The notes beneath the pieces were generated by a model, which searched no databases, had not been told where the DNA came from, and saw only the letters and a list, made by a program, of their open reading frames with translations. A stretch of DNA of 26,341 nt from an uncultured virus (IMG/VR IMGVR_UViG_3300046839_000025) (taxonomy: Duplodnaviria; Heunggongvirae; Uroviricota; Caudoviricetes): the IMG/VR virus record IMGVR_UViG_3300046839_000025. One strand, 5' to 3'. The stretch's first letter is position 1, and each line of letters starts with the position of its first letter. This document shows, piece after piece, positions 17,065 through 25,851 of the stretch. The position numbers and the translations under genes were made by a program.

Positions 17065-19422
17065 TTATGGACGAAGGCGTTCAGGTGGTATGTAAACCCA
17101 CTGAGAGCCATAGAGTGGAATGCGGATTTTCTTTTCGAACCGATGCCAGCCGAGCTTCACCAGGATGGCCCGAATTTTTGCTCCTTCCGCGATGGTAAGG
17201 TCGGCCCGGTTCTTTCCAAAACACTCGCACCAAATCTCCATGTTGGAGACGCTGGTGCGCTCAATCGTCCCGGTGCGAAGATCTGCTCCAAACTCGCTTT
17301 CACCATTTAGGAAGTTCCTCCGCTCATACAGGGTCATGCGGTCCCATTCGGAAGGGAGCTTGGTCTGAAGGTAGGAGACTACAATGCCTTCCCGCTCATC
17401 CGACTCCATGGCTTTAAGCTGCTCTGTCTTCGCAACATCCTGAAGCTCTGGCTCAAGGTAGAGCTTTTCACCAGCTTTAGCATACTCTAAGGCCTCTGCC
17501 CAGATCTGCTTGATGTCTTCCTCCGTAAGGTCCCAAGGGTGCCTGGCTAAACTTCCTGGTGTCTTGACTGGCCAGAACCTTCTGTTTCCTGTGGTGTCCC
17601 GAAGATACCCAGTCTCTGCGTTGGTGGTGCCAAAGAACACGCACTGGCGTGGGTGAGGCGTTGTGCGGCGCCCGAAAGACGCCCGGTAAATGTCGTTCTG
17701 GCGGGATAAAAAGGAACGGAGCGTTTCCACTTCTGCTTTTCTTAAACCTGCCAGCTCTCCAATCTCTAAGATCCAGTAACCCTGGAGCTTTTCTGCTGCG
17801 GTCTTATCTCTCGTATCACTGAGGTTAAGAGAGTCCGAGAACCATTCACCGGCGAGCTTAGCGATCAGGGTTGACTTTCCAATTCCCTGAGGGCCGTTAA
17901 GGACCAGCATGGAGTCGAACTTACAGCCAGGATGCATAACCCGGCATACGGCAGCGCAGAGGGTCTTTCTGGTGACGGCCCGGACATAGGCATTGTCTTC
18001 TGCACCGAGGTAATCGATAAGAAGGGTGTCGACTCGCTTCACGCCATCCCATGCGGGAAGTGATGCAAGAAACTCGCGGATAGGGTGATAGGATCTGTCG
18101 TCCGCCACCCTTGCCAGAGCGATCTGGTAGAAGCGCTGTGAAAAGTTTCCATAGTGTTCATCCACGTAGCTTACAAGCTGGGCGTCGTCTGCATCCCTCC
18201 AGTACTTGGTCGGATGATTCCAGGGCACCTCTCCTTTTATTTCCAGACAGTCAAGCTGCTGGTTGTAGACAATGGCCTTAAGGTTTTCATCGTTCTGAAG
18301 AATCAGAGTCAGGTTACCAAGTTCGTTCTCAATATTTCCTCTCCTGTTTAAGGTGAGCTTTCCCATCCAGTCTTCTGAATTGAATTCCTCCATGGCCTGC
18401 TCCCGGCGCTCTCCGGTTATCAGCCCCCTGACCTTTGCGTCACCACGGGCAAGATCAATCATTGCCTTATACGACGGGAGTTTTGTCACCGGAGTGTCAT
18501 CCGGGTACTTCTCATCAAGGTCTCTGAACTTATGCAGCCTGACTAAGTCAAAGGCATTAAGCAGCCTTCCGCAGGCTGGGTCGGTTGCGTGGTGGGAGTA
18601 GGAGAACTTGTGTTCATAAATCACGACACCAGCCGAGGACTCGCCCTTGATATAGTCGTAGCGGCCAGAAATTACTGATGGCGCGTAGACATCAGGCAGG
18701 AAGGTTTCTATCGCGTCTTCCACGCTGTAGGCCCGGCAAAAACAGCCAATCAGGCCAGGTTTAGAAAGAGGGTCTTCCACTTTTTTAAGCGCGTTGTGCC
18801 GCACTTCAGACTGCCTGGAGGACACTGGCCAGGTGGATTCATCCCGCCAGTCGTCGTATCTAGAAAGGTAATCGTCCGGATCAAGCAACTTTCCATCGTG
18901 CTCCCTATAGAAAAACATCACATTTGAAGAGGTGGACGGCCAGTACATCAGCCGGTGGGCTTCATAGGTCGAGTCGTCGAACAGGTCAATTCCGATTTCT
19001 TTAGCTGCCATACGTCCTACCGCAGGATACTCGGCTTCCGATACCTCTCTTTTCAGAGGAATGATCATGCGAAGCCTCGGGTGCTCTGGGGTGTGCTTAT
19101 GCGTGGAGTAGACGCAGAACGAGTAGGGAAGTTTCGACAGGACTTCATCCCACACACCTGGCGTGCCGTAGTCCATGTCTAAGGCTAGAGCAGACCTAGA
19201 GAGGACGTGGCCTTTCTTGCGCCTTCCAGCTTTTAAGTGGCCAAGGACGTAGCCACCTTTATCTTTAATTTCTGCCTGCTTTGCTTTTGGCATCTTCTTG
19301 TATTCTTCTACCGTTTCCGTTGTTTTGATGGTCTGACTGACCCTGGTCTTGAAATCCTCCCAGCTGATTTCGCTGTTCTTCCAGTGAAGCTCTTTTCGGC
19401 TGTTTCCATAAGAAATCTTCAT
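17065..19422 (-). CDS. VapE-family primase/helicase (virulence-associated E protein)
   Basis: N-terminal primase-like LDMD...YSTHKH...PRLRMIIPL; P-loop GPQGIGKST; EIGEL; GTTN...LRDTTGNRRFWP. Confidence 0.9.
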   Translation of the reverse strand: MKISYGNSRKELHWKNSEISWEDFKTRVSQTIKTTETVEEYKKMPKAKQAEIKDKGGYVLGHLKAGRRKKGHVLSRSALALDMDYGTPGVWDEVLSKLPYSFCVYSTHKHTPEHPRLRMIIPLKREVSEAEYPAVGRMAAKEIGIDLFDDSTYEAHRLMYWPSTSSNVMFFYREHDGKLLDPDDYLSRYDDWRDESTWPVSSRQSEVRHNALKKVEDPLSKPGLIGCFCRAYSVEDAIETFLPDVYAPSVISGRYDYIKGESSAGVVIYEHKFSYSHHATDPACGRLLNAFDLVRLHKFRDLDEKYPDDTPVTKLPSYKAMIDLARGDAKVRGLITGERREQAMEEFNSEDWMGKLTLNRRGNIENELGNLTLILQNDENLKAIVYNQQLDCLEIKGEVPWNHPTKYWRDADDAQLVSYVDEHYGNFSQRFYQIALARVADDRSYHPIREFLASLPAWDGVKRVDTLLIDYLGAEDNAYVRAVTRKTLCAAVCRVMHPGCKFDSMLVLNGPQGIGKSTLIAKLAGEWFSDSLNLSDTRDKTAAEKLQGYWILEIGELAGLRKAEVETLRSFLSRQNDIYRASFGRRTTPHPRQCVFFGTTNAETGYLRDTTGNRRFWPVKTPGSLARHPWDLTEEDIKQIWAEALEYAKAGEKLYLEPELQDVAKTEQLKAMESDEREGIVVSYLQTKLPSEWDRMTLYERRNFLNGESEFGADLRTGTIERTSVSNMEIWCECFGKNRADLTIAEGAKIRAILVKLGWHRFEKKIRIPLYGSQWVYIPPERLRP

Positions 19423-19748: not shown

Positions 19749-20071
19749 GTAAACGCCTCCGTCCTGTGAAATCTTCTGATTGGGATTTCTCTTTTTATGG
19801 CCTCTGTTGCTTCAAGAAGCATGCCAGATGTGACCTTGCTTCCGAAGATCCAAAGCTCATCGCACTTTGATAGAATTTCCTTATTCATCGATAGCGCAAG
19901 GCTCCGCTCATCCGGGTTGCCGTCATCCAGAAATTGTGGAAACAGCAGATGGGGAGCTATCGGGATCCCGCCTAGATTTAAAGCGAATCTGCAGTAAGAC
20001 TTGGCGAGATCTAGGTTTGCTTTCACATCGCCAGAGTAGGGGCTGCAGATAAAGATAAGTGGCCGTTTCAT
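19730..20071 (-). CDS. DUF4406-like / nucleoside deoxyribosyltransferase-fold protein
   Basis: IFICSPYSGD...PIAPHLLFPQFLDD...LSKCDELWIFG...GMLLE; RBS AGGAGG. Confidence 0.75.
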   Translation of the reverse strand: MKRPLIFICSPYSGDVKANLDLAKSYCRFALNLGGIPIAPHLLFPQFLDDGNPDERSLALSMNKEILSKCDELWIFGSKVTSGMLLEATEAIKREIPIRRFHRTEAFTCTKQE

Positions 20072-20153
20072 GACTTCACCTCCTGTAAAGTACTTGTGAG
20101 ATAACTTCTACAGGTATTCCGTCAAAAGAAATGGGCAAGATCCGTACTTCTTC

Positions 20154-20852
20154 TTAGAAATTCCGCACGTGTTTTTTGAGCTCCGGGTCCTGCCTGAGCC
20201 TTTCGTAGATCCTCTTGACCTTCCTCTGGATGACCCGCTCGTTCCGGCTTTTCATCCTGGCGTAGTTTGCGGCGGAGTGGTGCTCCAGAATCACATACTG
20301 AAAGATCTCCTGGTCTTCCTTACTAAGCGTACTTACGACTTCAAGGATCCGATCAAAGGCAGAGCCCTGGGTCTCGTTAAAATTCCAAAGGTCAAAGAGG
20401 GCAGAGGACTTGTCGCTGCAGCCTTCTTCTTCATCCGATGACAGGATCCGGTCTAAGGAATCAGTCCAGTTCTTTGGGAAGGCTTCTTTTACCGCTTCCT
20501 CAACGTATTCAGAAGATGGGGCGTAGCCGTGATCACGCATGAAGTTTTTGATGAACGCTTCTTTCCAGCCTTCCATTTCTCTTTTTTCTTGATCGCTGCG
20601 GTTTGGCCTTCTTGCTTTCAAGTTGTAGTAAACTTCTGAATCCTCGATCGAGTAGAGGGCTTTGATGTCTTCTTCTTTGACTCCGTCCTGGCCCGGGATG
20701 ATTTCGAATTCTTCGATGAAATCAACATTTCTTCCTTCGTGCTGCTCACGCATTGGGAATTTGTAGGTGTAGGAATAACGCTTCTTCTGATCGGTCTTTC
20801 TAAGCTGATCAGCTTTGTTTTCTGTATGGACATAAACTTGTTTCCTTTTCAT
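20154..20852 (-). CDS. Sigma70 region-4-like transcriptional regulator
   Basis: C-terminal LSKEDQEIFQYVILEHHSAANYARMKSRNERVIQRKVKRIYERLR; RBS GGAGG. Confidence 0.65.
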   Translation of the reverse strand: MKRKQVYVHTENKADQLRKTDQKKRYSYTYKFPMREQHEGRNVDFIEEFEIIPGQDGVKEEDIKALYSIEDSEVYYNLKARRPNRSDQEKREMEGWKEAFIKNFMRDHGYAPSSEYVEEAVKEAFPKNWTDSLDRILSSDEEEGCSDKSSALFDLWNFNETQGSAFDRILEVVSTLSKEDQEIFQYVILEHHSAANYARMKSRNERVIQRKVKRIYERLRQDPELKKHVRNF

Positions 20853-20893
20853 CGTGTTTCCTCCAGTCCATCCCGAACCGAAGGAAGCATGGC

Positions 20894-20956
20894 AAAAAGA
20901 GCATGGCAGGCCTCTTCGGAACGAGATATTACGTTTCGATACGGCCAGCCATGCTC
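20894..20956 (-). terminator. Long terminator-like hairpin 2 in the leader
   Basis: GAGCATGGC-T-GGCC...GGCC-T-GCCATGCTC followed by TTTTT; inner stem 20916-20923/20932-20939. Confidence 0.65.
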
Positions 20957-21061
20957 GTAGGCTGGGTTACTTTAATTTTGTTTCTCACCTCTGCTCGAGC
21001 CACCTCTGCGCGCCGGGGTGAACAGGTGTAAGAAAGAGACTTTTACCGTCATCCTCAGGAC

Positions 21062-21138
21062 AAAAACAAAAAACCGGCAGACAGTTATCTCGACGCAAAA
21101 GGAAAAACTTCCTATTGCTTTTGATATCTGTCTGCCGG
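21062..21138 (-). terminator. Long terminator-like hairpin 1 in the leader
   Basis: Perfect 11-bp stem CCGGCAGACAG/CTGTCTGCCGG with inner stems, followed by TTTTTTGTTTTT. Confidence 0.72.
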
Positions 21139-21259
21139 ATTCTTCACGGTGCTCTGCGCTGTTGCGCTGCCGAGTTCAATACTTCGTGCAAACTTGTGAT
21201 GCAGCCAGGCTCTTAGCGGTTCTCTGCCGGGTTCAGCTCGTGTACTGCAAACCCCAATA

Positions 21260-21442
21260 TTATTTTTTCAGATGGGCGGGTGATTTATTGGAATGCCTTA
21301 GGATCTCAACCGTTACTTTTCCATCCATGACTTCATAGTTAAGTAGGGCCCCGCATTTTGGGCAGGACGTTTCAGTGTTTGTCCCATCGCCGGAACGCCC
21401 AAGTCTATACCCACATTCGGGGCAGGTGGTGAAGAGCTTCAT
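21260..21442 (-). CDS. Small zinc-ribbon protein (60 aa)
   Basis: CPECG...CPKCG; GGGGGA upstream; start could also be TTG 21451. Confidence 0.7.
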   Translation of the reverse strand: MKLFTTCPECGYRLGRSGDGTNTETSCPKCGALLNYEVMDGKVTVEILRHSNKSPAHLKK

Positions 21443-21463
21443 TGTGATCAATCCCCCAATCTG

Positions 21464-21498
21464 TTAGATGATGTCTTTTAACACTTTGACAGCGATGC
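21464..21498 (-). pseudogene. lexA: Detached 3' end of the lexA-like gene
   Basis: Removing the IS and one TGC restores ...IQG IAVKVLKDII* in frame. Confidence 0.9.
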
Positions 21499-21583
21499 TA
21501 CAATGGTCCCATAGGGTTGGACAGGTATTCGGAAAATTATCGTGAACATGGTAGAATAGCAGTAGAAGAAAGGAGCATCTGTC

Positions 21584-21919
21584 ATGGCACGAAGGACGAA
21601 TTACAGCCCCGATTTTAAAGCAAAGCTGGTCATTGAGATCCTAGAAGGTGAGAAAACACTGAATGAGGTTGCAGCCAGTCATAACCTGAACCCGAATATG
21701 GTTCGGAGTTGGAAGAAAGAGTTCATAGAGAATGCGGGACGAGTCTTCAATGAACGTCAGTCGGAGAAGGAAATCCGCAGAAAGGAGGAGGACCTGGAAC
21801 GGGATCGCGAGAGAATGCTGAAAACCATTGGTCAGCTCACCTTGGAACGTGATTTCCTCCAGGATTGCTTTCGCGAAACTGGATATCCCGTCCCGGATGT
21901 TGATAAAGAGAAATTCTGA
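21584..21919 (+). CDS. IS3-family transposase OrfA
   Basis: RRTNYSPDFKAKLV...HTH...WKKEF...IGQLTLERDFL; RBS AAGGAG. Confidence 0.92.
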   Translation: MARRTNYSPDFKAKLVIEILEGEKTLNEVAASHNLNPNMVRSWKKEFIENAGRVFNERQSEKEIRRKEEDLERDRERMLKTIGQLTLERDFLQDCFRETGYPVPDVDKEKF

Positions 21920-22733
21920 CTTATCAGTCAGCCGACAATGCGAACTGTTGGGCGTGAGTAGGTCAACAGTCTACTATGAGCCCAAGAAACCATCAGAGAG
22001 CGAAATACAGTATCGTGAGGAACTGATGGGAGAGATTGACAAAATACACACGGATATGCCGTATGCCGGTCAGCGGAAGATCCTTGAAACGCTGAAGAAG
22101 AATGGGTATCAGATCGGCAGAAAGTTGGTCAGAAGCCTGATGCGGGAGATGGGGATCATCACAATCTATCCGACACCGAATCTTTCGAAGTGCACACGAA
22201 GGGATCAGATCGTTCCGTATCTGCTCCGGAATGCAAATATTTTTGCTGTGAATCAGGCATGGTCGATCGATATCACGTATATCAAACTACATAGGACACA
22301 TATGTATCTGACAGCGATCATAGACTGGCACAGCCGAATGATCGTCGGATGGAAGTTATCGGACGTACTGGATACGTATCCAGTCATAGATGCAGTCAGG
22401 GAGGCAACAGAGAGATATGGGACACCAGCAATCATCAATTCCGATCAAGGAACACAGTTCACCAGTAGAGAATATAAGGGGCTTCTGAAGTCAATGAAAA
22501 TTCGACAGAGTATGGATGGAAAGAGTCGCTGGGCAGATAACATCAAGATTGAAAGATGGTTTCGTAGCCTTAAAACGGAGAAATTGTACACAGAAGAGTA
22601 TGAGACCCCGAAGGAACTCCGTCAGGCGATCAAAACATACATTGATCAATACAATAATCAGAGACCACATGAAGCATTGGGATACAAAACACCCGCAGAG
22701 GTTTTTGGAGAGAGTTTTGAGACCGCTGCATAA
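21897..22733 (+). CDS. IS3-family transposase OrfB (DDE)
   Basis: WSIDITYI, NSDQGTQFTS, SMDGKSRWADNIKIERWFRSLKTE, YNNQRPH; frame open from 21828, true start uncertain. Confidence 0.92.
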   Translation: MLIKRNSDLSVSRQCELLGVSRSTVYYEPKKPSESEIQYREELMGEIDKIHTDMPYAGQRKILETLKKNGYQIGRKLVRSLMREMGIITIYPTPNLSKCTRRDQIVPYLLRNANIFAVNQAWSIDITYIKLHRTHMYLTAIIDWHSRMIVGWKLSDVLDTYPVIDAVREATERYGTPAIINSDQGTQFTSREYKGLLKSMKIRQSMDGKSRWADNIKIERWFRSLKTEKLYTEEYETPKELRQAIKTYIDQYNNQRPHEALGYKTPAEVFGESFETAA

Positions 22734-22809
22734 AAGAAAATATGATACATATATGGTAAATAATGGCACATGATAATTGTTCCAAAATTTGTCTTGACAA
22801 AGGGGACCA

Positions 22810-23388
22810 TTATATGCCCTGGATAATGCATGACTCTACATAGATATCATTCATCCTCTTGTTTTCCGGATGAAGGCGGATGCGCTTTTCCTTTGGCTCC
22901 GGATAAAAACGCTTTAAAGTCGCTTCGTCATCCATCAAGGCAACAACAACCTGTCCGGGCTCCGCTGTATTTTGTTTCTTAATGAGAACGAGATCGCCGT
23001 CATTTATTCCAGCATCGATCATAGAATCGCCGTTTGCGTGGAGCAGAAAGAAATCACCTTTGCCGAAAAGGGAAACCGGTAAGGGGATATACTCTTCGAT
23101 ATTGCCGTCTGCGTACTTCGGGATGCCGCAGGCAATACTTCCGAGAAGTGGGACTAACTCAGTGGACGCCTTGGTCTGTTTCATTTTACGGGTTACAATT
23201 CCCTTATGTCCTTTATATTCGATCTTGCCTTCGCTTCGAAGGTCCTGCAGGTAGCGTGACACGGTCGCATTAGAAACACCTGTTTCTGCTGCGATAGTCC
23301 GAGTCGTTGGAGAAACGCCATGCGCTTCCTGATAAGAATCGATAAAGGAGAGCAGGGTCTTGTAGTACTCTGGATTCTTAGACCTCAA
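22810..23388 (-). CDS. lexA: LexA-like repressor (S24 peptidase), C-terminally truncated by the IS
   Basis: wHTH (SPTTRTIAAETGVSNATVSRYL), IACG cleavage loop, GDSM serine, TLKR lysine; TTG start with GGAGG; new stop lies inside the IS end. Confidence 0.9.
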   Translation of the reverse strand: MRSKNPEYYKTLLSFIDSYQEAHGVSPTTRTIAAETGVSNATVSRYLQDLRSEGKIEYKGHKGIVTRKMKQTKASTELVPLLGSIACGIPKYADGNIEEYIPLPVSLFGKGDFFLLHANGDSMIDAGINDGDLVLIKKQNTAEPGQVVVALMDDEATLKRFYPEPKEKRIRLHPENKRMNDIYVESCIIQGI

Positions 23389-23440
23389 ATCTTGTCCTCC
23401 TTTCTTAAAGTATCAATTGATTCTGTACCTTACAGTTTTT

Positions 23441-23468
23441 ATTATACGAACAAGAGTTCTCTAGTCAA
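23441..23468 (-). promoter_or_regulatory. SigA promoter with a Gram-positive SOS (Cheo) box in its spacer
   Basis: TTGACT-16 nt-TATAAT; CGAACAAGAGTTCT (GAAC-N4-GTTC) at 23447-23460. Confidence 0.82.
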
Positions 23469-23582
23469 TATGGTAATTTTGCTGTCAGAGAAGCTGTCGC
23501 TTTTTCTGTACACTTGAGAAGAAAGTGGGAAGATGGGTAGAAAAGGGCAGAAGAGGGTGCCTGAAAATCCGATTTTTATATA

Positions 23583-23658
23583 GTCCGTAAAGTTGCGGCA
23601 CATTGTCGTGAAATTGCGACAGTTTATGTTTGCGGGGCTGCCATTATGCTGATATACT
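23583..23658 (+). promoter_or_regulatory. WYL-gene promoter with upstream palindromic operator candidate
   Basis: TTGCGG (23630) -17 nt- TATACT (23653) with extended TG; TGTCG-N8-CGACA at 23604-23621 and a degenerate copy 21 bp upstream. Confidence 0.55.
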
Positions 23659-23697
23659 ATTATTTATTGAGTATGAGAAAGAACCGGAGGAGCTAAG

Positions 23698-24681
23698 ATG
23701 CCAAACGGGAACAGACAGAAAATCAAGCTGCTGAAGCTCATGGAGATACTTTACCAGCAGACCGATGAAGAGCATCCGCTTACGACCAGCCAGTTAATGA
23801 AAAGACTGAATGATCTTGGAATTACCTGTGACAGAAGGACGCTTGGAAACGACATCGCGACGCTGAACGAGTATGGCTATGAGGTCTTAAGCTGCTACGT
23901 TGGCCATGAGAAAGCCTACTACGTGGTCGACCGGACATTCACGGTGCCAGAGCTTAAGATTCTGATCGATGCCGTCCAGGCGGCAGGCTTTATCACAGAG
24001 AAGAAGACAAAAGAATTCGTGGACAAGATCGCAAGTCTTGGAGGAAGCCACCGAGCCGAGATTCTGAAAGGCAATATGGTCTGCTTCAACACAACAAAAC
24101 ACACGAACGAAGAGATCTACTACAACATCTCCGAACTCGAAAATGCGCTTCTTCATAAGAAGAAAGCCTCCTTCTATTACTTCGACCGGGACGAAAAGGG
24201 GCAGAAAGTCTACCGGCAGAACAAAGAGCGCTACATCGAAAATCCGATGGCTCTGATTTACAACAACGATCGCTATTACCTGATGTGCTATTCCTTCAAG
24301 CATAACGGGATCTGCAATTACCGGATTGACCGCATGGAGCATGTCAATACGGAAAAAGAGGACGTTGCTCCGGAGGCCATTATGGAAGCAGGAGACATCG
24401 GAGAATACACCGAGCAGGTCTTTAAGATGTACGGCGGCAAAGCCGAAGACCTTGTCCTGGAGTTTGACGACAAGCTGATCGGCGTCGTGCAGGATAAGTT
24501 TGGCGAAGGCACAAAGATGATCCGGACAGCCCCGGATAAATGCGCAGCTTCGATCAAAGTGCAGATTTCACCGACCTTCTGGGGCTGGCTATTTCAGTTT
24601 GTCGGGCAGATGAAGATCCTGTCGCCGGAAAGCTTGATGGAGGAGTACCGGGAGCGGGCGAAGATGGTAACTCAGGAATAA
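23698..24681 (+). CDS. WYL-domain transcriptional regulator (wHTH-WYL-WCX)
   Basis: N-terminal HTH (TDEEHPLT...CDRRTLGNDIATL), NPMALIYNNDRYYL, YRIDRM, C-terminal FWGWLFQF...ILSPESL; RBS GGAGG. Confidence 0.9.
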   Translation: MPNGNRQKIKLLKLMEILYQQTDEEHPLTTSQLMKRLNDLGITCDRRTLGNDIATLNEYGYEVLSCYVGHEKAYYVVDRTFTVPELKILIDAVQAAGFITEKKTKEFVDKIASLGGSHRAEILKGNMVCFNTTKHTNEEIYYNISELENALLHKKKASFYYFDRDEKGQKVYRQNKERYIENPMALIYNNDRYYLMCYSFKHNGICNYRIDRMEHVNTEKEDVAPEAIMEAGDIGEYTEQVFKMYGGKAEDLVLEFDDKLIGVVQDKFGEGTKMIRTAPDKCAASIKVQISPTFWGWLFQFVGQMKILSPESLMEEYRERAKMVTQE

Positions 24682-24693
24682 GAAAGGAATAGT

Positions 24694-25851
24694 ATGGGAT
24701 TGTTTGATTTCTTAAAGAAGAAAACAACGCCGACAGATGGAGTAGAGCAGGCTGAATCCGTGCCTGACGTTTCGAATAAGGCCAAGATACCGGAAGCCGG
24801 TCATAAAATTGCGCCGTCCGTCCCGGAGAAAGAGAAGAAATACTATCTGCCAGATGACTACTATACATATGTCATCCATGAGGGCACAGCTTTCGAGCGC
24901 CGGGTAGTTACATTCGAGGAAAGAAAGAAAACATGCATTCCGTCAGAGAGGGGCCTGTATGTAGCGGAGATCTTGCTGCTCTTCTACTGCTCTAAGGGAA
25001 AGTATCCTCATCCGAAGGACGGCTACCCCGGCTTCTGGTGGTTCAAATATGGTATCCGTGACGTAGGGAAGGCACTTGAGAGCCTGGAAGACCGCGGCTT
25101 TATCGAGTTTGGGACTGCTGCTGATGTAGCCGCATCTTTAAAAGTAGTTGAGCTTAAGGAACTGTTGTCAGATGCAGGACTGCCTAAGACCGGAAAGAAA
25201 GCAGATCTGGTGAAGCGTGTGGCTGAGAATATTCCTGAAGAAAAGATCCTCGCAGCCGGGGCTGAGCAGAAGTATCATCTTACGAAACTCGGTGAAGAGG
25301 AGCTTGAAGACAACGCCTATGTCCCTTATATGCATAACAACCGCAATACTACTGTGGAAGGGATTAACGGAGCTTACGCGGAATTTAACGTCTGGTCCAT
25401 AAACCGCATCCTAGGCAGAGGTGATAAGAGCAACTGGAGAGCAGTTGTGGACGACGAGGAAAGAAAGTCAATCGAGGAAGCGCACCGCAGATATATGAAG
25501 AATCTGTTTGATGAAGAAGATGGAGAGCTAATAGATGACAGCGAGATAAAAGCCCAGGAAGTTCAGCTTGCCAAAGTACAGCATGCTGCAAAGCAGTATG
25601 AGAAAGACGGGGATCTCGACTCCTACATTGCCTTCTGGGAAGACATCTGGAAAGAAGGCGGGCCGAAGTTCGAAGGCAAGATGTGGATGTTTACGCTGCC
25701 GGATCTGTATATAAAGGCCGGACGCTACGAAGATGCCTTGGCCTTGGTGATGAAGATCAAGGAAACCAGAGGGGCATATTACTGGGATAAGGCAGATTAC
25801 TATGTTAAGAAGATCGAAGGGCTGATTGAGAAAAGTGCGAGGAATCGGTGA
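24694..25851 (+). CDS. SAP-domain-containing protein with TPR-like C-terminus
   Basis: LKVVELKELLSDAGLPKTGKKADLVKRV (SAP); LPDLYIKAGRYEDALAL (TPR-like); MGLFDFLKKK N-terminus; 12 bp after the WYL stop. Confidence 0.78.
   Translation: MGLFDFLKKKTTPTDGVEQAESVPDVSNKAKIPEAGHKIAPSVPEKEKKYYLPDDYYTYVIHEGTAFERRVVTFEERKKTCIPSERGLYVAEILLLFYCSKGKYPHPKDGYPGFWWFKYGIRDVGKALESLEDRGFIEFGTAADVAASLKVVELKELLSDAGLPKTGKKADLVKRVAENIPEEKILAAGAEQKYHLTKLGEEELEDNAYVPYMHNNRNTTVEGINGAYAEFNVWSINRILGRGDKSNWRAVVDDEERKSIEEAHRRYMKNLFDEEDGELIDDSEIKAQEVQLAKVQHAAKQYEKDGDLDSYIAFWEDIWKEGGPKFEGKMWMFTLPDLYIKAGRYEDALALVMKIKETRGAYYWDKADYYVKKIEGLIEKSARNR

Follow-up and report, generated by a model that had tools for sequence, protein, structure and literature searches.

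The window analysed here, i.e. the whole stretch of 26,341 nucleotides (nt) of IMG/VR record IMGVR_UViG_3300046839_000025, reads from its minus-strand gene content as a Clostridia prophage, and its closest named relatives are Eubacterium genomes. On this strand, a gene for a zinc (Zn)-ribbon protein of 60 amino acids (aa) is separated from the gene of a regulator resembling sigma-70 region 4 by 407 nt (21259-20853), which hold three copies of the motif GAAYYCGGCAG, two predicted intrinsic terminators (T1 and T2), and a hairpin that hides the Shine-Dalgarno (SD) sequence of the sigma-like gene. This arrangement is real and non-random. In our estimate the chances are about even that the 407 nt are a cis-regulatory leader of the first lytic gene and are gated by the Zn-ribbon protein. 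A preliminary description of the region had proposed an RNA-level lysis/lysogeny switch. It is partly supported. Its general idea of an RNA gate with a Com-like protein is right, but some of its details are wrong. The RNA gate in front of the lytic regulator has held up, whereas control by the Zn ribbon is read from its context. All positions below refer to the minus strand unless stated otherwise, and the features are collected in Table 1.

Repeated words, two terminators and an occluded start

The 60-aa CxxC..CxxC open reading frame (ORF; 21442-21260) and the ~400 nt without a credible ORF behind it had been recognised before, and both were found again. Long antisense ORFs that cross the leader (106-152 aa) were considered as coding sequences and rejected; relatives differ there by 1-nt indels, and the leader is therefore judged to be non-coding. 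The motif GAAYYCGGCAG occurs exactly at 21224-21234, 21167-21177, and 21132-21142, the three sites already described, and these are the only exact matches on both strands of the window. G001, a related 83.9-kb virus record with two leader copies, contains six forward matches, three per leader copy.

The first two motif copies belong to a 5′ platform that consists of two anciently duplicated units. The units align with a score of 13, compared with −3.0 ± 3.3 for shuffled sequences (0 of 500 as high), and share GUUUGCA (at 21252 and 21193), whereas Tandem Repeats Finder reported no array in the leader at a score of at least 30. What had been described as ~57-nt imperfect tandem units sharing GTTTGCA is an old duplication and not a tandem array. 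The whole leader has a folding z-score of −5.63, and the platform (117 nt, motif copies 1 and 2) folds no better than shuffled sequences (z +0.94). The RNA around the upstream motif copies is not structured beyond chance, and their appearance is rather that of words bound by a protein. The platform also has a small hairpin, GCGC-AACA-GCGC (21156-21167), whose stem carries a compensatory C-G to U-A change in the related locus L059. In addition, the leader contains four copies of GCAGAG, which the preliminary description does not mention.

Motif copy 3 overlaps the 5′ arm of T1, as the preliminary description had noticed and as the fold of T1 confirms. The arms CCGGCAGACAG and CUGUCUGCCGG form a hairpin of −35.5 kcal/mol (z −9.0; none of 200 shuffled sequences folded as well) with U6GU5 (UUUUUUGUUUUUG) behind it. 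T2, followed by UUUUUG, corresponds to a hairpin at 20899-20956 that had also been reported, together with a GCCATGC past its U-tract ~40 nt before the sigma-like gene, and is likewise confirmed. Each of the two has a G+C-rich stem-loop directly before a U-tract and is predicted to be an intrinsic (Rho-independent) terminator. A simple terminator scan picked up neither of them, because both loops are longer than 8 nt.

The sequence GCCAUGC is present twice, at 20907-20901 and, behind the U5 of T2, at 20893-20887. The second copy can indeed pair with the 5′ arm of T2, as had been suggested, but this pairing is far weaker than that of the true arm (about −16 versus −28.5 kcal/mol) and would free only the bottom of the hairpin that follows. 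That hairpin, which is absent from the preliminary description, pairs UUCCUUCGGUUC with GGACUGGAGGAA, i.e. the SD sequence GGAGGAA with UUCCUUC (−16.7 kcal/mol, z −4.1). The segment 21222-21198 was considered as the best duplex partner of the anti-SD strand (−21.4 kcal/mol) and was not adopted, half of it being replaced in the relative L009.

Two earlier ideas on the motif copies found no support. The first was that the upstream copies compete for the 3′ arm of T1. They have the same sense as the 5′ arm and would still build a terminator-like hairpin, merely a larger one, so that competition by RNA alone is unsupported. The second was an analogy with the c4/CI systems of P1 and P4. The antisense RNAs of P1/P7 (c4) and P4 (CI) are characterised by complementary target sites, whereas all motif copies of the window are same-sense. 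The complement of the motif has no match in G001, and in the window it has none besides the 3′ arm of T1 and the reverse complements of the three motif copies themselves. The Rfam search that the preliminary description had named matched no characterised family: for positions 20000-24000, the best of five matches in Rfam 15 had an E-value of 2.2, with scores of ~18-20 bits compared with gathering scores of 40-80.

The leader as probable continuation of a repressor operon

The best promoter-like site of the region precedes the gene of a LexA-like S24 repressor. Its spacer contains the box GAACTCTTGTTC (GAAC-N4-GTTC; 23448-23459), which we take to be an SOS (Cheo-type) box, bound by LexA in Firmicutes. 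The pattern GAACNNNNGTTC has two matches in the window, compared with 0.32 expected, and in L059 a box is found at the equivalent place of the repressor promoter (1714-1725), though the spacer sequence differs. The second GAAC-N4-GTTC box of the window, at 18604-18615, lies inside the primase-helicase gene.

In relatives without an insertion sequence (IS) at this place (L002/L006, L005, L059, and L162), 13 nt separate the stop codon of the repressor gene from the start of the Zn-ribbon gene. A consensus scan, restricted to sigma-70-type sites, revealed no promoter-like site on the minus strand between 21442 and 20853, and the only strong minus-strand promoter is the one upstream of the repressor gene. 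Judged from this order, the repressor gene, the Zn-ribbon gene, and the leader form one transcription unit. Between the U-tract of T2 and the ATG no promoter would fit, because these ~40 nt are filled by the SD hairpin. The repressor-operon context and the lack of a promoter-like site in the leader together imply that lytic transcription must pass T1 and T2, barring a promoter of a type that the scan does not cover.

The same context could be read with the opposite sign. The Zn ribbon would then strengthen termination, as TRAP does, and lock the phage in lysogeny; alternatively, the leader up to T1 would give rise to a 3′-UTR (untranslated region)-derived, trans-acting small RNA like c4. Co-transcription of the Zn-ribbon gene with the repressor gene is in line with such a lock, and so is the likeness of the leader's short words, repeated on RNA without structure, to the sites of TRAP. 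However, derepression would raise the inhibitor and leave no route to lytic expression, and the words have no complementary target in the window or in G001. We regard this explanation as highly improbable.

The Zn-ribbon protein and its relation to Com of phage Mu

Profile comparisons place the Zn-ribbon protein as a distant relative of Com, the RNA-binding activator of phage Mu, in agreement with the likening to Com in the preliminary description. Among the PHROGs, it matches phrog_6417 (“translational regulator”) best, with an E-value of 7.6e-5; Mu Com matches this family at 2.8e-10, and for both proteins it is the best or second-best PHROG. A HMMER scan of 1.84 billion representatives yielded 111 relatives at E ≤ 1e-3, most of them 57-85 aa long, with the common pattern C..CG..LGRSG.GT.TE..CPKCGA...Y.V.D..VTV. 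A profile built from 32 of these relatives (A7) was compared by hhalign with one built from 35 Com-like proteins of other phages (A6); the two align over 45 columns with a probability of 96.9% and an E-value of 1.5e-10. Like the Com family, the window protein has two CxxC knuckles within a small protein. An alternative TTG start at 21451 would extend it to 63 aa.

The AlphaFold2 model is an all-beta, five-stranded fold (mean predicted local distance difference test score, pLDDT, 76.8). Its nearest solved folds, identified with Foldseek against the PDB, are generic Zn ribbons, with LysW at template-modelling (TM) scores of 0.61-0.69 and E 0.07. The PDB sequence search and Foldseek returned generic Zn ribbons only and no Com structure; the top sequence match was RPA12 (E 0.045). 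In Pfam, the matches are likewise sub-threshold and generic, the best one being the TFIIB Zn ribbon with 25 bits at a cut-off of 29.

Zn ribbons are common polymerase-binding modules, and the matches to TFIIB and RPA12, weak as they are, would fit a protein that assembles together with the words on RNA polymerase, so that T1, T2, and later terminators are ignored and no single hairpin is occluded. Phage lambda provides a precedent, its N protein being an arginine-rich peptide that binds boxB. Two strong terminators in series with a word overlap at T1 only, and words that lie upstream on unstructured RNA, are compatible with such processive antitermination, of which a cis-RNA version, canT, has been described for Gram-positive mobile elements (PMC11658703). 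On the other hand, the Rfam search gave no match and thus no similarity to N, Q, LoaP, or put/EAR RNAs, and the relatives of the protein point to Com, which is portrayed as a local RNA remodeller in the account used here (PMC6483171). We consider processive antitermination quite unlikely.

The more remote viral matches to the Zn-ribbon profile (L166-L181) comprise unrelated proteins of large size and small Zn ribbons that precede a different gene, and are uninformative for the leader. Five of these loci (L168, L172, L175, L179, and L181, at ~1780-1980) encode another Zn-ribbon family of 61-72 aa (..RC..C.KLLAKTNGDTEIKCPRCGA.N.Y..). Its ORFs are separated by 13-15 nt from a large downstream gene that begins with ..YLKEYELELLGRNRIYTDADEIT.., a different context for a related small protein.

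Exchange of the regulator gene behind the leader

Three related loci (L162, L164, and L165), mutually identical over the stretch, have the same repressor as the window, a Zn ribbon with 95% identity, and a leader that is retained from the three words through T1 and the spacer to the 5′ arm of T2. From the loop of T2 onward their sequence differs from that of the window, and the next gene encodes another regulator of 167 aa (phrog_13787). This regulator has 34% identity (E 7e-17) to the product of the gene behind the Com-box of L102 (see below), which matches Sigma70_ECF. The 3′ arm of T2 in L162 has three substitutions, all of which preserve pairing (two G-C to G·U, one U·U to U-A); the hairpin has −33.6 kcal/mol, and U5 comes after it. 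An SD lock exists there as well, rebuilt from another sequence (UACCUCC/GGAGGUA; −25.7 kcal/mol, z −5.2). The changes in the L162-type loci and the compensatory change in L059 keep the pairing, which shows that T2 and the SD lock are under selection. The same cassette precedes non-orthologous sigma-like genes, and the Zn ribbon and the leader thus move as a unit.

A 214-kb IMG/VR contig behind L007, L009, and L164 carries three related repressor/Zn-ribbon/leader cassettes ~60 kb apart, two before a sigma-like gene of the DSEVYYNLK type and one before the Cys-rich type. This suggests polylysogeny with near-identical immunity regions.

Sister cassettes with a Com-box in other phages

The sigma-like protein of the window has no Pfam match, but a sigma-70 region 4 domain is present in the homologues P0025 (PF08281) and L074 (Sigma70_r4_2, 4e-13), and the window protein can be aligned with it. 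We surveyed 65 loci that encode sigma-like homologues, namely those for which a start could be placed. Nine of them have an upstream small CxxC..CxxC ORF. Four are of the window type (L007-L009 and L059), and in the other five, L016, L063, L065, L074, and L075, the Com-like ORF is followed by two boxes, CCGAGCAACGG and ACCAAAUNGCCGG, which are found in exactly these loci of the 65 and are together called the Com-box here. The two boxes are absent from the four window-type loci.

A pattern scan of IMG/VR for the boxes gave 75 loci and, after removal of chance matches, a family of 61 unique sequences. A CxxC..CxxC ORF ends at most 450 nt upstream of the Com-box in 59 of the 79 loci examined. Across 60 aligned sequences both boxes are invariant, and the helix that joins them as well as the hairpin at the second box covary: 98.4% of the cells are paired, compared with 16-46% in slid controls, and 89 cells have a double change, compared with 14.2 in shuffled alignments. 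The hairpin that opens at the second box (ACCAAAU) has −21.7 kcal/mol or stronger in all 61 sequences, and 37 of the 61 pass a strict terminator test with a U-tract. Of 41 downstream ORFs tested, 25 match Sigma70_r4, r4_2, or ECF. An Rfam search of four sister loci (L063, L065, L074, and L016) gave nothing near any gathering score.

Three of these loci (L063, L065, and L074) contain a repressor-type gene and a second gene upstream of and co-directional with the Com-like gene. According to PHROGs, the repressor gene of L065 and L074 is of the XRE type, and the second gene of L074 encodes a metalloprotease. The different type of repressor argues that the same logic has been built in another way. 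The order of Zn ribbon, RNA words, word-bearing terminator arm, SD lock, and sigma-region-4 gene is common to the window and the Com-box family; the cassettes of Firmicute phages also share the preceding repressor and the position of a word in the 5′ arm of the terminator. The two Zn-ribbon families are profile-related, and both classes of sigma-like gene occur behind both types of cassette. The types differ in their words (CCGAGCAACGG plus ACCAAAUNGCCGG versus three GAAYYCGGCAG), and the window has two terminators and a leader that is ~250 nt longer.

The sister cassettes also bear on the possibility that control is purely translational, as in the com-mom system of Mu: the Zn ribbon would open the SD hairpin alone, and T1 and T2 would be leaky, unregulated attenuators. 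As far as the available account goes, Com melts a translation-inhibition hairpin (PMC6483171). The SD lock is present in the window and rebuilt in L162, and for 33 aligned Com-box leaders RNAalifold predicts pairing between the anti-SD strand and the flank of the first box. In contrast, 230-370 nt separate the words of the window from the SD hairpin downstream, whereas Com has its site right beside its hairpin; much leakage is not to be expected from terminators that have U-tracts and −33 to −35 kcal/mol; and some sister loci, among them L098 and L149, have a free SD sequence and no barrier other than a canonical terminator. In view of these points, we rate control of translation alone as very unlikely.

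Two further observations were made in these loci. In 13 of the 79 (L082, L089, L092, L096, L100, L105, L110, L112, L113, L122, L127, L138, and L140), a conserved basic ORF of 47-57 aa (..KQTS..VA.KASS.L.DGRTS.KTKSVAGSALSQT.PS.KKK) lies between the Com-like gene and the Com-box. L064 has a divergent Com-box-like leader on its plus strand (2850-2948; AACAGUAACUG .. GCUAGAUGGCCAGA.. with hairpin and U-tract) in front of a sigma-like homologue, no Zn-ribbon ORF within 1 kb, and a covariance-model score that is not significant (9.3 bits, E 1.8).

Proposed mode of action and points against it

In the mechanism that we propose, the leader would be transcribed as the 3′ continuation of the SOS-box-controlled repressor/Zn-ribbon operon, and expression of the sigma-like gene would be blocked by three elements in series, i.e. 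T1, T2, and the SD-hiding hairpin. Upon DNA damage, the repressor would be cleaved and the operon derepressed, the Zn-ribbon protein would accumulate, and only then would the sigma-like regulator be produced. The protein would most likely bind the GAAYYCGGCAG(AG) words that recur on the 5′ platform, where the RNA is unstructured, and act on termination, translation, or both. Because word 3 is the 5′ arm of T1, its occupation would block the folding of T1, and RNA polymerase would read on. T2 could be passed, and the SD hairpin opened, by the same protein, using the GCAGAG and CGAGCA words before T2, by a processive change of the polymerase, or by strict Com-type control of translation.

We further propose, tentatively and at somewhat less than even chances, that this is a widespread, undescribed switch of temperate Clostridia phages. 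It would unite a repressor, a Com-related Zn ribbon, and a lytic sigma-like regulator in one damage-inducible unit, in which the Zn ribbon removes the RNA locks once it has passed a dosage threshold, and it would be modular across unrelated sigma-like regulators and repressor types (LexA-like S24, or XRE plus metalloprotease). A literature search revealed no paper on a Com-like protein that gates a sigma-like gene or a terminator, though such papers may exist.

Several results weigh against gating by the Zn ribbon. An upstream Zn-ribbon ORF is lacking in 56 of the 65 sigma-like loci, and a laxer search of 17 other sigma-like loci yielded no such ORF. Terminator-like hairpins were found in 43 of 57 sigma-like loci and SD-paired hairpins in 44 of 57; because such hairpins are common at loci without a Zn ribbon, another factor could open gates of this kind. 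The survey of SD pairing is weak, its lax criterion being passed also by 35% of shuffled sequences and by 26 of 50 starts of next genes. The motif words do not explain the passage of T2, and the dosage threshold must be postulated, the activator being co-transcribed with the repressor.

The comparative evidence for the leader of the window itself is also limited. Its relatives are ~95% identical, and covariation is scarce for this reason; it comprises the compensatory pair of L059, the three one-sided changes in T2, and the rebuilt SD hairpin. A metagenome scan for close relatives of the sigma-like gene added two loci only, one of them identical, and covariation stayed thin. T1 has an A·C mismatch in five of seven distinct relatives read (L009, L008, L059, L152, and L162), while the arm of L153 is perfect. 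The covariance model of the Com-box reached at best 7.5 bits (E 5.8) on the window, at 21076-21152, which covers the small hairpin and T1, and it had no significant match in the window's relatives either. As to the protein, no Pfam Com model is among the matches listed and phrog_13819 was not matched, so that membership in Com proper is weak. Profile scores of Zn ribbons are inflated by the shared cysteines. A hidden Markov model of 52 Com-like proteins also points to Com, but weakly: it gives the window protein 15.4 bits, compared with 13.7 for the best of 200 Cys-preserving shuffles. The same model scores Mu Com at 16.6 bits.

The most serious alternative, which we nevertheless hold to be unlikely, is passive insulation. 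T1 and T2 would be operon-end terminators that shield the lytic genes, which would be expressed from an unrecognised promoter or with the help of another factor; the Zn ribbon would have an unrelated function (DNA binding or anti-repression), and the words would be DNA sites. Tandem strong terminators behind a regulatory operon act as an insulating device in Tn916, as far as the published account goes (PMC11658703), and both the many loci without a Zn ribbon and the restriction of the promoter scan to sigma-70-type sites are compatible with this explanation. However, the space between T2 and the ATG is taken by the SD hairpin, and transcription from a promoter between T1 and T2 would meet T2. 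The words are repeated in direct orientation, on a single strand, and are not palindromic. Moreover, the Zn ribbon and the leader travel together before two sigma-like genes that are unrelated to each other, and T2 and the SD lock persist in both cases. In the Com-box family, even the sequence that makes up the 5′ arm of the terminator does not vary.

Among the sigma-like homologues without a Zn-ribbon ORF, many are preceded by 400-800 nt that lack an ORF of at least 55 aa. Examples are L021, L035, L043, L046, and L049 (~790 nt upstream of the sigma-like gene) as well as L015, L030, and L031. These stretches have a conserved small terminator-like hairpin (−16.5 kcal/mol, followed by UUUUUG) and an SD-paired hairpin (−21.3 kcal/mol), and may represent another type of leader.

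Comparison with known systems

The small proteins LicT/SacY and HutP, and TRAP as the negative case, bind RNA words near or overlapping a terminator arm and thereby decide whether the hairpin forms. The window leader likewise has short repeated words that adjoin or overlap a terminator arm. The folds are unrelated, and the window has no known ligand or phosphorylation input; its input would be the SOS-driven dosage of a protein.

The com-mom system of Mu shares with the window a four-cysteine protein of ~60 aa that is encoded directly upstream of its (putative) target gene, and a hairpin that occludes the SD sequence or start of this gene (PMC6483171, as far as it describes the system). The same source gives 5′ GAAUGCCUGCGAGCAUCCCACGGAG 3′ as the site that Com naturally recognises in Mu and GAGNNCC as the core selected by SELEX (systematic evolution of ligands by exponential enrichment) (PMC6483171). 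The natural site resembles CGAGCAACGGAG. Words like this core, also containing GA, occur twice in the window leader, as GAGAACC and GAGCACC. In contrast to Mu, where the target is described as a DNA-modification gene, the target in the window is a sigma-like master regulator. The leader has 407 nt with two intrinsic terminators, none of which figure in the description of Mu; the words are far from the SD hairpin, one of them overlapping a terminator arm; and the cassette is part of a repressor operon under an SOS box. Relative to Com-type riboregulation, the addition of intrinsic terminators and the master regulator as target are new.

In lambda with N-nut, and in Tn916 with canT (PMC11658703), replication or lytic genes are likewise kept silent behind terminators, several of which are passed with the help of a device that the element itself encodes. 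The description of canT is that of an RNA that acts in cis and involves no protein (PMC11658703). In the Rfam search, the window leader had no similarity to RNAs of the canT or lambda N-nut type.

In textbook temperate phages, the decision between lysogeny and lysis is taken at divergent promoters bound by repressors. In the window, the repressor gene and the gene of the lytic regulator are co-directional, and RNA structures are the only barriers between them. If the Zn ribbon opens these barriers, the device would be a timer made of protein and RNA, through which an SOS signal leads to expression of a phage sigma-like factor only after a delay and above a threshold. Com-type regulation, so far represented by one DNA-modification gene of Mu, would then also cover the termination of transcription and the control of master regulators. 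A protein of 60 aa, words of 11 nt, and terminators of the standard kind make up a small and modular set of parts, which occur in many phages of gut Clostridia and could be reused as a genetic switch.

Gene order and neighbouring elements

Table 1 Features of the repressor/Zn-ribbon operon, the leader and the sigma-like gene in the window
Feature	Position	Strand	Details
Sigma-70-region-4-like regulator gene, 232 aa	20154..20852	-	first gene of the early/replication operon; phrog_1740, E 3.6e-6
Second GCCAUGC and SD-sequestering hairpin	20853..20893	-	hairpin 20889-20855; SD GGAGG 20864-20860; ATG at 20852
Predicted terminator T2	20894..20956	-	stem-loop 20956-20899, U5 20898-20894; −33.0 kcal/mol, z −8.1
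Inter-terminator spacer	20957..21060	-	two GCAGAGGUG words (GCAGAG at 21004-21009 and 20989-20994), CGAGCA; no promoter-like site
Motif copy 3 and predicted terminator T1	21061..21142	-	stem-loop 21138-21074, U-tract 21073-21061
5′ platform of the leader	21143..21259	-	anciently duplicated unit: motif copies 1 and 2, two GCAGAG[AC]ACC words, small hairpin
Zn-ribbon gene, Com-like, 60 aa	21260..21442	-	ATG start; CPEC..CPKC
IS3-family insertion sequence	21499..22812 (ends approximate)	+	orfA 21584-21919, orfB 21828-22733; HTH_Tnp_1 and rve matches
LexA-like S24 repressor gene	22810..23388	-	Peptidase_S24 1e-29, LexA_DNA_bind 5e-5
Promoter of the repressor/Zn-ribbon operon, TTGACT-16-TATAAT	23441..23468	-	score 11/12; best promoter-like site of the region

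The order along the minus strand is a WYL-domain gene (divergent), the S24 repressor gene, an IS3 element (on the other strand), the Zn-ribbon gene, the leader, and the sigma-like gene, which is followed by replication genes (DUF7768, a VapE-type primase-helicase, VRR-NUC, and SNF2), the gene of a DUF1492 regulator, and those for HNH/terminase/portal/capsid. A blastn search of the stretch against 50,697 phage records gave no match.

The IS3 element sits between the repressor gene and the Zn-ribbon gene, and no IS is found there in L002, L005, L009, and L059. Its junctions are at ~21498/21499 and ~22812/22813, and orfA and orfB overlap as is usual for IS3. The repressor of the relatives has 215 aa and the C-terminus ..CIIQGIAVNVLKNIN; in the window copy the insertion has taken the place of the final codons and thereby of the tail ..AVNVLKNIN. 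The element places 1.3 kb of antisense DNA between the SOS-box promoter and the Zn-ribbon and lytic genes, and this copy of the prophage may have lost its inducibility through the insertion, which amounts to a natural uncoupling of the promoter from the gate.

On the other side of the repressor gene, and divergent from it, lie the genes of a WYL/WCX-domain regulator (23698-24681, plus strand) and of a SAP-domain protein (24694-25851, plus strand). The WYL gene adjoins the repressor gene also in L006 and L059 and thus travels with the element.

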